A program made the position numbers and the translations under genes. DNA of 61,751 bases, the filler included. It is 8 parts of 8 records of this genome, joined end to end, with 100 filler letters (N's around TTAATTAATTAA, not from the genome) between each part and the next. Parts side by side here need not be neighbours in the genome. Positions count along the whole stretch, not along the records: positions 35,352 to 43,616 come from SRR31156797_59453; 7 more parts are not named here. One strand, given 5' to 3'. Below are positions 35,352 through 39,644 of this stretch, in pieces (positions within the stretch are counted from its first letter, which is position 1; every line of letters starts with the position of its first letter). The notes under the pieces were generated by a model, which was given only the letters and a program-made list of their open reading frames with translations, was not told the DNA's origin and did no database searches.

Positions 35352-36351
35352 CAGGCAGATCCAGCAGCTCAATGCCTGGCTGCCGGAGATCGGCACCCCG
35401 GACGAAGTGATGCTGGGCGCCCTGCCCTTCTTCCATGTCATGGGGCTCACCGTTGCCATGAACTTTCCCATCTTCAGGGGATGGGGGACCGTGCTGGTGC
35501 CCAAGCCCCAGCCCGACCAGCTGCTGGAGGCCATGACCCGGTTCAAGCCCACCCTGGCCCCCCTGGTGCCGACCATGTATATCGGGCTGCTCAACCATCC
35601 CAAAATCGACAACAGCGACCTGACCTCCATCAAGCTGTGCATCTCGGGCAGCGCCCCCCTGCCCCAGGAGATCATCACCCAATTTGAGGAAAAGACAGGC
35701 TCCACCATCATTGAGGCCTTTGGCATGACCGAGTCCTCCCCGGCCACCCATGTCAACCCCTTTGGCGAGGGCAAGCGAAAAATCGGCAGCATTGGCGTGC
35801 CCCTGCCGGACACCGAATGCCGGATCGCCAACCTTGGGGACCGTACCCTGTCCATGCCGCCAAACGAGCCGGGGGAACTGGTGGTGCGGGGCCCCCAGGT
35901 GATGCGGGGCTACTGGAACATGCCCGAAGAGACCCGGTCCACCCTGGAAGATGGGTGGCTATACACCGGCGACATCGCCCTGATGGACGATGACGGCTAC
36001 TTCTTCATCGTGGACCGGATCAAGGACATGATCATCTCAGGCGGGTACAATGTCTACCCCAGGGACATCGACGAGGTGCTTTTCCAGCACCCCGATGTGG
36101 TGGAAGCCTGTGCCGTGGGCATCCCCCACGAGACCCGGGGGGAGCAGATCAAGGCCTTCGTGGTCCTGAAGCAGGATGCCCGGGTCACGGAGAAGGAGAT
36201 CATCGATTTCTGCAGCACGCGCCTGGCCGTGTACAAGCTTCCCACCCGGGTGGAGTTCAGGGAAAGCCTGCCCAAGACCAATGTGGGCAAGGTGCTCCGC
36301 AAGGATCTCAGGCAAGAAGCCCTTGAACGGATCAGCACCCCGAGTAGATAA
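35352..36351 (+). CDS. Long-chain-fatty-acid--CoA ligase (FadD-like), 5'-truncated
   Basis: LPFFHVMG, SGSAPLP, EAFGMTESSP, GWLYTGDI, DRIKDMIISGGYNVYP and LPKTNVGKVLR. Confidence 0.92.
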
Positions 36352-37300
36352 TGCGGTCCCCGTCCAGGTGCCTGGCGATCCTGTTTGACTTTTCAAGGTA
36401 GTGAAGATGGGAGATGGCTTCCCCGGTTGCAAACCATTTCTGTGCAATGGGGAAGTCGTCCCAGGAGTCGGCCCGGATATCCCAGGTCATCCGGGAGGCG
36501 GTTTCATAGGCGTCCCGCTCCCCCTGGGCAAGAATTCCTTCAACCTCCCCGAGCCGCGCCATGTGGTGGGCCTTGAGCTCGTCGATCCTTTTTTTCATGT
36601 CCGTGAACAGGCTCCTGTGGCCGGGCACCACAAGGTCCACCGGGAGCGGATACACCTTGTCAAGGCTTTCAAGGTAATCGTTCAGCAGGTTTTCATCCTC
36701 CTCCCAGCACTGGATGTTAGGGGTGATGTCCCCCAGGATATGATCCCCGGAGATGAAGATCCTGTTTTCCGGCTCATACAGGCAGATATGACCCAGGGTA
36801 TGGCCCGGGGTCTCGATGCACCGGAGGGCGTACCCCCCCACACGAATCTCGTCATTGTCCCGGATCACCCGCATGCCCGGCTTCCACTTGGAGCCGTGCT
36901 TGAACCCGGGATGGTTCTCCAGGGCCTGGCGCAGCTTTTCCGCGGGAAACCCGTTGACCCGGGCCGACTCGAGCATGGGCTCCCACCCCTCCCAGGACTC
37001 CAGGAGTTCCGCTTCGGGACGGTTGAAGTAGATCCGGGATTCCGGCGTGAGCAGCCGGTGCAGCAGCCCGAAATGGTCCGCATGGAGGTGGGTGATGAGG
37101 AAATCGGTCCGGTGCCGGTCGATGCCAAGCTCGCTCAACCCGGCATCCATGGCGGCAAAGCAATCGTCATGGTTCAGTCCGGTGTCGATGACAAGGTTGC
37201 GCTCTTCGCCCCGGATCACCACCGAGTTAAGGCATTTCAGCGGGGTTTCGGGCAAAGGGATCTCAATGCGGAAGATGTTGCGCGCCAGGGTTTCAATCAT
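36332..37300 (-). CDS. MBL-fold metallo-hydrolase
   Basis: THLHADH, PGHT.GH, SGDHIL, PGH and a C-terminal winged-helix-like tail. Confidence 0.9.
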   Translation of the reverse strand: MIETLARNIFRIEIPLPETPLKCLNSVVIRGEERNLVIDTGLNHDDCFAAMDAGLSELGIDRHRTDFLITHLHADHFGLLHRLLTPESRIYFNRPEAELLESWEGWEPMLESARVNGFPAEKLRQALENHPGFKHGSKWKPGMRVIRDNDEIRVGGYALRCIETPGHTLGHICLYEPENRIFISGDHILGDITPNIQCWEEDENLLNDYLESLDKVYPLPVDLVVPGHRSLFTDMKKRIDELKAHHMARLGEVEGILAQGERDAYETASRMTWDIRADSWDDFPIAQKWFATGEAISHLHYLEKSNRIARHLDGDRIIYSGC

Positions 37301-37415
37301 GGTGGGGTCTCCTTACGACCGGAGTCGTTGTGTCCAGGGATTTGGGTGAGAAAAAACCATGTTAAATCATTATTTTGTTGACAAAACTTTGTCCATAACC
37401 TTATGTAGATGAATT

Positions 37416-37529
37416 ATGAACTATTATCAAACGGAAATTGTATTTTCTGCGGCATGTAACGCTTCTGCCGCGTTTAATTGGTGGCGCACCTGGACCCATA
37501 GGGATGCCCGCACACTTTTTTCGGTCTGA
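37416..37529 (+). CDS. Trp-rich leader peptide (TrpL-like, 37 aa; absent from ORF track)
   Basis: MNYYQTEIVFSAACNASAAFNWWRTWTHRDARTLFSV*, with TGG codons at 37479, 37482 and 37491. TTGACA lies upstream at 37378-37383 and attenuator hairpins follow. Confidence 0.8.
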   Translation: MNYYQTEIVFSAACNASAAFNWWRTWTHRDARTLFSV

Positions 37530-37625
37530 TAATATACAAAAGGTGTAATAACAAGAGGTTGCGGGCACAACGCCCCCAACCTCTTTTTAGTTTTTGGGTT
37601 GTGGGCTTCACCGCAACCTTTTTTT
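37505..37625 (+). promoter_or_regulatory. Transcription attenuator with antiterminator and two tandem intrinsic terminators
   Basis: T1 stem 37553-37566/37572-37585 (13 of 14 pairs) plus T-tract. T2 stem 37597-37604/37611-37618 plus T7. TGCCCGCA (37505-37512) is complementary to TGCGGGCA (37560-37567). Confidence 0.8.
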
Positions 37626-37676
37626 ATTGCTGCAACAGGTGTTTGGTGATACTAAAAAACGGTCATGGAGGAAAAC

Positions 37677-38693
37677 ATGCTGATAGTAATGAAAAAAGGA
37701 ATCAAAGACGAAAATGTCCAATCGGTTGTCAAAGCGGCAGAAAAAAGAGGGCTCACAGCCAGGCCCATCCCCGGCGGAGACAGGGTCTCCATCGGCATCC
37801 TGTATAACAAGGGATCGGTGGATGCCGCGCATTTCATGGGCCTTGAAGGGGTCAAGGAGGTTATTCCGGTGACAAAGCCGTACAAACTCGTGAGCCGGGA
37901 ATTCCAGCTGGAAAACACGGTGGTATCCATAGGCGACGCCAGGTTCGGCGGCACGGACCTGCCCGTGATCGCAGGCCCCTGCGCCATTGAAAGCGAAGCC
38001 CAGGCCTTGACCATCGCCAAGGCCGTCAAACAATCGGGGGCCGCGGTGTTCCGGGGCGGGGCGTTCAAGCCCAGGACCTCCCCCTATTCCTTCCAGGGAC
38101 TCGGCGAAGAGGGCCTGAAGATCCTCGCCAAGGTCAGGGAGGAAACCGGCCTTCCCGTTGTCACCGAAACCATGGACGTGGAAAACTTCGACATCGTGGA
38201 AGCCTATGCCGATGCCGTCCAGATCGGCACCCGGAACATGCAGAACTACTCCCTGCTCAAGCGGGCCGGCCGGTCCAAGCGCCCGGTCATCCTCAAGCGC
38301 GGCATGTCCGCCACCCTCCAGGAATGGCTCATGGCCGCAGAATACATCATGGAAGAAGGCAACCCCCAGGTGATCCTCTGTGAACGCGGCGTCAGAACCT
38401 TTGTCAGGCACTCCCGGAACACCCTGGACCTCTCGGTGGTCCCGGCGGCCAACAAGGAGACCCACCTGCCCGTGATCATCGATCCCAGCCATGCGGCCGG
38501 CGTCCGGGACCAGGTGATCCCCCTCGCCCTTGCCGCTGCGGCAGTGGGTTCCGCAGGCATCATGGTCGAGGTTCACCACAAACCCGACGAGGCCCTGAGC
38601 GACGGCGCCCAGTCCCTGCTCCCGGAGCAGTTTGACCAGCTCATGAAAAAGGTCAACGCCATCCACGCCATCACAGGCACAAAAGCCCTGTGA
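37677..38693 (+). CDS. aroF: 3-deoxy-7-phosphoheptulonate (DAHP) synthase, type I-beta with N-terminal regulatory domain
   Basis: IAGPCAIES, RGGAFKPRTSPYSFQG, QIGTRNMQN, LKRG, CERG, DPSH and ALSDGAQSL. GGAGG RBS precedes the ATG at 37677. Confidence 0.93.
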   Translation: MLIVMKKGIKDENVQSVVKAAEKRGLTARPIPGGDRVSIGILYNKGSVDAAHFMGLEGVKEVIPVTKPYKLVSREFQLENTVVSIGDARFGGTDLPVIAGPCAIESEAQALTIAKAVKQSGAAVFRGGAFKPRTSPYSFQGLGEEGLKILAKVREETGLPVVTETMDVENFDIVEAYADAVQIGTRNMQNYSLLKRAGRSKRPVILKRGMSATLQEWLMAAEYIMEEGNPQVILCERGVRTFVRHSRNTLDLSVVPAANKETHLPVIIDPSHAAGVRDQVIPLALAAAAVGSAGIMVEVHHKPDEALSDGAQSLLPEQFDQLMKKVNAIHAITGTKAL

Positions 38694-38777: not shown

Positions 38778-39644
38778 ATGGCAATCAAAGGTATCAAGGC
38801 AAAGCTGGTCGATGTATTTGCCGAAAGTAAATTAACCGGCAACGGGCTGACCATATTTTGGAATTATCAAGACCCTTCCACCGAAGAGATGCAGGTCTTA
38901 ACCCAGGAAATGCGTCAATTCGAGTCCATCTTTGTTCAAAAAACGCCGGAATCCAATCATTTTCGAGCCAGAATATTCACCATGGAAGAAGAGCTGGATT
39001 TTGCAGGCCATCCCCTCATCGGGCTGGCCGCCCACCTCCATGAAGCGTACGGCACCCGGGAAGCGCACGAATGGCACATCGAACTCAGGTCCAGCAGCAT
39101 CCGTCTCACCAGCCACGCCAAAGGAGATTACTATTCGGCGTCCATGGACCAGGGCGCCCCCGAGTTCATCAACGTCTTAAAACCATCAGAACGCCTTGAG
39201 GTGTTATCGGCCCTCAACCTGGGTGAGAATCATGCGGCAGACATGCCCCCGGAAGTCATCTCCACAGGCCTTCCCTATTTAATCGTTCCCGTCGTCAGCG
39301 GCATAGAGCAGGCAAGAATACAGACCGGGAATTTTGAATCCCTTTTAAATCGGTATGGCGCCAAGTTTGTCTATGTCCTGGATATCAACACCTTTGAAGG
39401 CCGTACATGGGACAACGAAGGAAAAATGGAAGATATCGCCACGGGCAGCGCCGCCGGGCCTGCTGCCGCATTCCTGTTCAAAGCAGGTTGTGTATCCCCC
39501 GACAAACCGTTTCAGATAAGCCAGGGCCGCATGGTCGGCAGACCAAGCAAAATAGACGTTTACTTAAAAGCAAACAAAGATGAGATAAACAACATCATTG
39601 TCAGCGGTGATGTCTATAAAGTAGCATCAATCTCGTTTGAATAA
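38778..39644 (+). CDS. PhzF-family isomerase/epimerase
   Basis: VDVF....TGN, RARIFT.EEELDFAGHP, STGLPYL, EDIATGSAAGP and QG..VGRPS. Confidence 0.88.
   Translation: MAIKGIKAKLVDVFAESKLTGNGLTIFWNYQDPSTEEMQVLTQEMRQFESIFVQKTPESNHFRARIFTMEEELDFAGHPLIGLAAHLHEAYGTREAHEWHIELRSSSIRLTSHAKGDYYSASMDQGAPEFINVLKPSERLEVLSALNLGENHAADMPPEVISTGLPYLIVPVVSGIEQARIQTGNFESLLNRYGAKFVYVLDINTFEGRTWDNEGKMEDIATGSAAGPAAAFLFKAGCVSPDKPFQISQGRMVGRPSKIDVYLKANKDEINNIIVSGDVYKVASISFE

Follow-up and report, generated by a model that had tools for sequence, protein, structure and literature searches.

The leader and its gene

Can a single stalled ribosome disarm two successive terminators, and does it do so for Trp ahead of a DAHP synthase gene? 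The question is raised by positions 37378–37676 of the window (the whole stretch of 61,751 nucleotides, filler included, that was analysed), where a preliminary description had proposed a hidden Trp leader peptide and a cascade of two terminators. From the sequence, its conservation, covariation and folding energies, we assign a probability of roughly 0.7 to a six-segment, ribosome-mediated Trp attenuator ahead of aroF, in which helix 2:3 leads to helix 4:5 as a relay. All features below lie on the + strand unless stated otherwise.

The downstream gene (37677–38693) had been called a DAHP synthase; profile matches above cut-off (NCBIfam PRK08673 and TIGR01361), together with structure alignment, identified it as type I-beta with an N-terminal regulatory domain. 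For the start at 37677, PDB 1RZM and 4GRS both align from residue 1, and it is preceded by a Shine-Dalgarno sequence (GGAGG, 37667–37671). This sequence lies approximately 40 nt beyond the last U-tract, so sequestration of the aroF ribosome site by the leader looks unlikely. Judged by the titles of aroF orthologues among the best 80 of 225 loci, the closest relatives of the window belong to Desulfobacteraceae and Desulfobacterium; the two nearest, G001 and G002, have DAHP synthases 96% and 92% identical to that of the window. The gene next after aroF is of the PhzF family in the window (38778–39644) and likewise in L001 and L002, a place taken by aroB in most relatives. The regulatory domain (37677–37880) differs in several places from the 4GRS chain around residues 28–36, which we take to be the allosteric site.

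The leader peptide had been described as a 37-residue uORF with NWWRTW, YY and three F, and all of these are present in the 37 codons at 37416–37529. The candidate control codons W22, W23 and W26 (37479–37493) start at 37479, 37482 and 37491. Orthologues were drawn from the best 80 of 225 confirmed loci; L034, in which the gene start was missing, was left out, giving 79 loci plus the window. A Trp uORF followed by a first hairpin occurred in 52 of these 80 (the window and 51 of 79 others, mostly Desulfobacteraceae-type), with L013 added by hand and positions corrected by hand in L011, L018, L029, L031, L049, L056 and L074. Lack of conservation of the Trp codons had been named in advance as a ground for refutation; the Trp-sensing role is instead supported by the presence of at least two W codons in 48 of the 52 uORFs, and WW or WxW occurred in 44. 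Trp made up 8.1% of codons in frame and 0.9% in the other frames, an enrichment that arises partly by construction because at least one W was required when uORFs were picked. The last W codon lay 55–76 nt upstream of segment 3 in all 52 leaders, while uORF length varied from 24 to 56 aa. The likeness of NWWRTW to E. coli TrpL is probably convergent, since the leader scored 20.3 bits with Rfam Trp_leader (RF00513), whose gathering score is 41, and orthologous peptides vary around their Trp codons.

Transcription of the leader is predicted to begin at P1, a sigma70-type promoter at 37378–37407. Its -35 element occupies 37378–37383; the -10 element (TATGTA, 37402–37407, after an 18-nt spacer) is non-consensus in the window and was placed by position alone, with consensus TATAAT at that position in many orthologues. 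A consensus scanner run over the window leader called no promoter on the + strand, P1 included. Of the 52 leaders, 46 have TTGAC at a distance of 36–39 nt upstream of the uORF start, and a Shine-Dalgarno-like motif preceded just 2 of 52 uORFs, compared with 51 of 52 aroF starts; for these reasons the uORF is probably near-leaderless. A promoter-like site on the - strand (37366–37395), belonging to a divergent MBL-fold hydrolase gene (36332–37300), overlaps P1. The start of the uORF can also pair with its end (in the window, 37424–37446 with 37512–37532). In 27 of 52 leaders, a count made without a control, this pairing was at least as strong as -6 kcal/mol, with the strongest cases in L067, L035 and L001; it may be one reason why the uORF has a conserved ...TE close to its start and ...SV-stop at its end.

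Hairpins and alternative pairings

Downstream of the control codons, six segments can pair in two exclusive sets. Segments 1 and 2 form a hairpin (37481–37511), a weak protector or pause candidate that loses to 2:3 once segment 3 has been made. Segment 2 (37505–37519) is the putative antiterminator arm for segment 3, as judged by pairing, covariation and folding: positions 37505–37512 had been said to pair with the 5' arm of the first terminator, and do so at 8 of 8 positions with 37560–37567, while 37514–37519 extend the helix over the remainder of that arm. The first terminator, T1 (segments 3:4, 37553–37588), has a stem at 37555–37583 of -18.3 kcal/mol followed by U5-AG-U5, its U-tract being placed at 37584–37588; covariation and a bias towards U also mark it. 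The second, T2 (segments 5:6, 37596–37625), has a stem at 37596–37619 of about -14.9 kcal/mol followed by U7, and is identified by a scanner match and by covariation; alternatively, it is the base of a 3:6 rod around 4:5. The relay helix 4:5 (37572–37606), between the 3' arm of T1 and the 5' arm of T2, likewise shows covariation; the pairing proposed for it, 37572–37581 with 37597–37606, is present at 9 of 10 positions with one C.U mismatch, and the two 5' arms are near-direct repeats, as had been noted.

A consensus terminator scanner called T2 only, which is one site where 1.6 were expected. When an anchor-free detector was set to find two hairpin-plus-U units, 33 of 52 leaders passed. Among the controls, 1 of 73 operon ends passed, as did 5 of the 250 long-ORF ends in a random sample from 387. 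Since tandem units were rare in these control ends, the arrangement in the leaders is more than chance.

Conservation and covariation

A second repeat element was present in 50 of the 52 leaders; L013 and L031 had a single hairpin. Four of the 50 had 30-nt linkers and were left out of the covariation alignment, which comprised the remaining 46. The preliminary description had looked to orthologous leaders for covariation, and compensatory changes were found in all three helices concerned. In the eight-pair core of 3:4, 92.3% of cells were paired and 7 of 8 pairs showed compensatory changes; the 4:5 core had the highest value (93.9%, 6 of 8 pairs) and the 5:6 core was paired in 81.6% (5 of 8 pairs). 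For each of these helices, none of 500 shuffles reached the paired fraction or the covariation score, although the shuffles ignore relatedness. Near-repeat hairpins bring a degree of 4:5 complementarity with them, and 3:6 was therefore taken as an internal control (84.2% of cells paired, compensatory changes in 6 of 8 pairs). In 35 of 50 loci, 4:5 was the stronger of these two helices. When relatedness was handled, by protein-identity clusters alone, the advantage was significant at the 90% identity level (19 of 23 clusters, p = 0.002); significance was lost at coarser levels (9 of 11 at 85%, p = 0.08; 5 of 6 at 82%, p = 0.09). An advantage of 4:5 over 5:6 was not significant at cluster level.

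The pairing of each segment with its own partner was also compared with its pairing to partners from other clusters, across 50 loci. The own partner was better for 2:3 in 39 loci, for 3:4 in 44, for 4:5 in 44, for 5:6 in 36 and for 3:6 in 34, so that the cascade originally proposed, 2:3 followed by 4:5, gained support at both of its steps. Compared with its shuffles, helix 2:3 was also significantly better (p < 0.05) in 33 of 52 leaders. Direct pairing of 2 with 5, a candidate route by which T2 might be disarmed, was rejected, because the own partner was better in just 24 of 50 loci, that is, without covariation. With 2:3 locus-specific and 2:5 not, segment 2 appears matched to T1 alone, so that disarming T2 takes the relay.

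Folding energetics and proposed mechanism

Folding of the window was modelled in stages, each at equilibrium, on the RNA lying 3' of the footprint assumed for the ribosome. With the ribosome stalled at any of the Trp codons and segment 4 not yet transcribed, 2:3 formed at p = 1.0; when the ribosome was at F35 or at the stop codon, segment 2 was not free to pair. With 2:3 held, 4:5 formed at p = 1.0 before segment 6 is made, despite a mismatch that leaves the window's 4:5 helix 2.2 kcal/mol less stable than T2. Terminators were favoured at equilibrium in both contests (-29.2 vs -22.7 and -37.6 vs -35.4 kcal/mol), so the relay must be kinetic; barriers to return to T1 and T2 were estimated at about 15 and 11 kcal/mol, respectively. 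Before segment 4 is made, 2:3 was predicted without any ribosome (p = 0.96) and also for stalls at Y3, Y4, F10 and F20, which means that Trp specificity comes from codon conservation and not from structure. In the E. coli trp-type attenuator, a stable 1:2 protector gives termination without translation; the equilibrium model of the present leader, with 2:3 favoured in the ribosome-free RNA, differs in this respect.

The following sequence of events is proposed. The P1 transcript would start a few nucleotides upstream of the uORF. When Trp-tRNA is ample, a ribosome at the stop codon would cover segment 2, allowing T1 (3:4) to form and transcription to terminate near 37588; polymerases that escaped would meet a second terminator at U7 near 37625, either T2 (5:6) or the 3:6 rod enclosing 4:5. 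A stall at W22, W23 or W26 would instead let segment 2 pair with segment 3 before segment 4 is made; segment 4, thus freed, would capture segment 5 while segment 6 was still to be transcribed, neither terminator would form, and aroF would be transcribed. Assembled contigs from four metatranscriptome runs of one study carry no weight in this proposal: one spans 37434–37939, but the neighbouring gene on the opposite strand has coverage as well, and no pile-ups of starts or ends are listed. The computed features are those of the attenuator class: a uORF with cognate codons, exclusive antiterminator and terminator structures, and a U-tract terminator before a cognate biosynthetic gene. It is very probable that the leader works like a classical Trp attenuator, and probable, with less assurance, that a relay like that of his operates within it.

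Do both hairpins terminate?

Among the 50 two-hairpin loci, T1 was at -8 kcal/mol or stronger in 49 and T2 in 35; T2 was weaker than -8 kcal/mol in 15 and weaker than -5 kcal/mol in 8. The U run after T1 was at least five long in 27 loci and at least six in 14, compared with at least six in 42 loci after T2. Both terminators look good in 30 of 50 loci, the window among them. Positions 4–8 after T1 contained 166 T and 35 A, while the spacer between stop codon and stem contained 250 T and 546 A; given this A-rich neighbourhood, the composition suggests that the U-tract after T1 is selected. At equilibrium over segments 3–6, helix 5:6 was dominant in 23 loci and 3:6 in 26, so one or the other prevailed in 49 of 50; where T2 had decayed, the rod of 3:6 enclosing 4:5 usually closed on the second U-tract. 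The models thus raise a possibility beyond the preliminary description, namely that the conservation of 4:5 may be due in part to its place at the top of the 3:6 rod. In either case 2:3 is the master switch, because it takes segment 3 away from both 3:4 and 3:6. The chances that both U-tracts are used as terminators are about even; that of T2 adjoins a promoter-like element, P2, and may be retained for the promoter.

These patterns bear on how many terminators the leader employs. A his-type attenuator with one working terminator, in which T1 would be an intermediate like the CD hairpin and the second U-tract would be the site of termination, with either 5:6 or the 3:6/4:5 rod in front of it, would account for the longer second U run and for the helix that closes on it in 49 of 50 loci. 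It would also suit L011, which has lost its first U-tract and kept 4:5, and it has a precedent in the AB/CD/EF and BC/DE pairings known for his (from the part of PMC10989985 available). Yet T1 is the stronger and better-kept stem, and the bias towards U after it reaches beyond what pairing needs, so this reading is unlikely. Somewhat less likely still is a four-segment attenuator of the trp type, regulated by T1 alone, with segments 5 and 6 a decaying duplicate whose U-tract survives as an upstream element of P2. The decay of the T2 stem in the eight weakest loci speaks for it, as do the T-tracts upstream of the P1 and P2 -35 elements in leader-less loci, the single hairpins of L013 and L031, and the trpE leaders, which by eye mostly have one terminator. 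It sits poorly with 4:5, the best-paired helix, being retained where T2 has decayed, with the recurrence of two hairpins on unrelated stems across three gene families and also in the remotest loci, and with the rarity of tandem units in control ends.

The identity of the signal can be questioned separately. Were the YY and F codons to add a Tyr/Phe response to that for Trp, the leader would be a general aromatic sensor; the 2:3 helix predicted for Tyr and Phe stalls would allow this, and YY recurs in 9 of 52 uORFs. However, these codons are hardly enriched across the 52 uORFs (Y 4.2% in frame vs 3.0% out of frame; F 7.2% vs 5.3%), in the largest clade the aromatic codons at the N-terminus are explained by their overlap with a DNA operator, and dedicated Tyr/Phe and Phe leaders exist at paralogues; we regard a general sensor as very improbable. 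A T-box or other riboswitch was rejected, there being none among 10 Rfam matches down to E = 10; at gathering score, no Rfam family was found in seven related loci. A Trp attenuator with a 2:3 to 4:5 relay remains the preferred reading.

A possible bypass promoter and natural variants

P2 (37627–37655) follows both terminators and is promoter-like (TTGCTG, 17 nt, extended TG, TACTAA). The 17-nt spacer with extended TG was found in 53 of 80 loci, compared with 0–5 loci at other spacers. In all 53 carriers the -7 T of the -10 element is absent, so P2 is at best weak. A leader was lacking in 28 of 80 loci, of which 18 retained P2. In L047 and L066 the uORF has been lost while the hairpins and P2 are retained, a pattern that fits a working P2 bypass. 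As read from the sequence, P2 could bypass the Trp switch and probably provides Trp-independent basal expression of aroF from downstream of T2.

The attenuator has been deleted or has decayed in L037, L041, L044, L045, L047, L051, L054, L055, L057, L058, L060, L061, L066, L068, L069 and L071–L073. In many Desulfotignum loci, P1, the operator and P2 alone remain.

trpE, paralogous DAHP synthases and a probable TrpR-type operator

What follows on trpE, the paralogues and TrpR comes from relatives' genomes. Regulation of shikimate-pathway entry had been proposed to take place here rather than at trpE, and this opposition found no support: in G001 and G002, trpE is preceded by a leader of its own that contains three Trp codons and one terminator, and the two-hairpin leader heads an aroF-trpE operon in L074, L075 and L080 (extending through trpGD or trpGDC in the cases where this was visible). 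Elsewhere the order is mostly aroF-aroB. An ORF with a Trp pair was flagged at 15 of 30 trpE loci, once falsely; by eye, 11 had one terminator and 2 had two hairpins.

Two further DAHP synthases are encoded in each of G001, G002, G004 and G005, and one further in G003; a class II DAHP synthase was not found in any of the five genomes searched. The suggestion of tight Trp control over pathway entry is weakened by these additional enzymes and by P2 beyond T2; the aroF of the window would be the Trp-keyed member of up to three DAHP synthases. A Tyr/Phe-rich uORF was found at 30 of 34 type I-alpha loci (L130–L133, L139–L168), and a uORF with a Phe run at 26 of 30 aroF-pheA fusions (L169–L198); of the four fusions that failed, two were incomplete loci and two were those of G001 and G002, in which the leader is absent. 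Two hairpins were detected in 22 of 31 type I-alpha leaders and in 22 of 24 fusion leaders examined. The two-hairpin design is the same as in the Trp leader and the stem sequences are different. Helix 4:5 was stronger than 3:6 in 19 of 22 type I-alpha and 16 of 22 fusion leaders, while locus-specific covariation of 4:5 was weak or absent (17 of 22 and 12 of 22, respectively).

A palindrome, TGTTTCT-N6-AGAAACA, occurred in 17 of 151 genomes of the order, compared with one for a control pattern, and often lay upstream of trpE, trpB or trpB2. A gene with the TrpR-family domain PF01371, below the TIGR01321 cut-off, was present in all five genomes, and the palindrome preceded it in G001, G002 and G005. 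An autoregulated Trp repressor regulon, marked by this palindrome, is probable in Desulfobacterales. The operator (score of at least 8) was found at the aroF promoter in 45 of 80 loci, often over the first uORF codons; at the aroF promoter of the window it was not found (-24.6 at the homologous position, -8.2 at best). Palindrome sites were located at G001:C741:7167-7186 and in L081–L085, L093, L094, L099, L101, L102, L105, L106, L110, L111, L114–L117, L119 and L121.

Comparison with known systems

The his attenuator of E. coli and Salmonella shares the six segments and the principle that one stalled ribosome leads to two successive antiterminator helices: AB, CD and EF are opposed to BC and DE, and uridines are described after EF only in the part of PMC10989985 available. 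The present leader has that topology (1:2, 3:4 and 5:6 against 2:3 and 4:5), with Trp and not His as its control codons. It differs in that the middle hairpin carries its own U-tract, the hairpins are near-repeats and the 3:6/4:5 rod is nearly isoenergetic. What is new relative to his is the U-tract on the middle hairpin; the six-segment cascade itself was already known, and the basic mechanism is textbook. With E. coli trpL (RF00513) the leader shares tandem Trp codons and a 2:3 antiterminator opposed to a 3:4 terminator, but the uORFs are longer and lack a Shine-Dalgarno sequence, 1:2 is weak, there is a second hairpin, and the target is a DAHP synthase. A leader-peptide attenuator before a DAHP synthase gene is described for C. 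glutamicum aroR-aroF, where the codons are Phe-Tyr-Phe and the response is to Phe, unlike the Trp codons and two hairpins here (Neshat et al. 2014 via PMC11802643; PMC4046766; both as far as the parts available extend).

E. coli also has three DAHP synthases, AroF, AroG and AroH, each keyed to one aromatic amino acid; aroH is under TrpR, whose regulons were reconstructed in gammaproteobacterial lineages (PMC5343134, in the part available). There, keying depends on TyrR and TrpR, whereas here each of several unrelated enzyme types is apparently keyed through an attenuator (Trp; Tyr/Phe; Phe), and many relatives of the window, though not the window itself, have a TrpR-family operator as well. 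If correct, the three leaders would be an RNA-level counterpart of the AroF/G/H logic. Together with the trpE attenuator and the TrpR-family operator, they would give an outline of aromatic regulation in sulfate reducers.

No two-terminator relay appeared in the parts available of PMC2659441, PMC5794164, PMC4833913, PMC3082878 and PMC9413887. A literature search, with subscription journals mostly outside it, found no paper on tandem-terminator leader-peptide attenuators or on Trp attenuation in Desulfobacterales, nor any on aromatic amino acid regulation in sulfate reducers (DAHP synthase or trpE attenuators, TrpR operator). A look-up by sequence gave no hit for this leader. Attenuators in deltaproteobacteria were reportedly predicted by Lopatovskaya et al. 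in 2010. The fullest account of the leader falls slightly short of even odds: that one ribosome sensor governs two real terminators in series through a kinetic relay, that the same design with different stems precedes all three DAHP synthase types of Desulfobacterales, and that the Trp version adds a near-leaderless uORF and a bypass promoter on the second U-tract. On that account leakage would be cut twice, because with near-repeat hairpins a polymerase escaping T1 meets T2 or, by strand exchange, the 3:6/4:5 rod.

The leaders constitute an uncatalogued attenuator family with covariation support, whose natural variants have two hairpins, one hairpin, a decayed second stem or a deleted leader. 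They make it possible to test how the kinetics of folding during transcription allow metastable helices to prevail over stronger terminators, and whether an attenuator gains range from terminators in series. The two-hairpin design is not universal in the lineage, as apparent leaders of ilvB in L242 and L248 (rich in Ile, Leu and Val, as read by eye in L248) have a single terminator. Of 30 ilvB loci inspected by eye, most lay behind another gene, and the only two adjacent leaders had one hairpin each.
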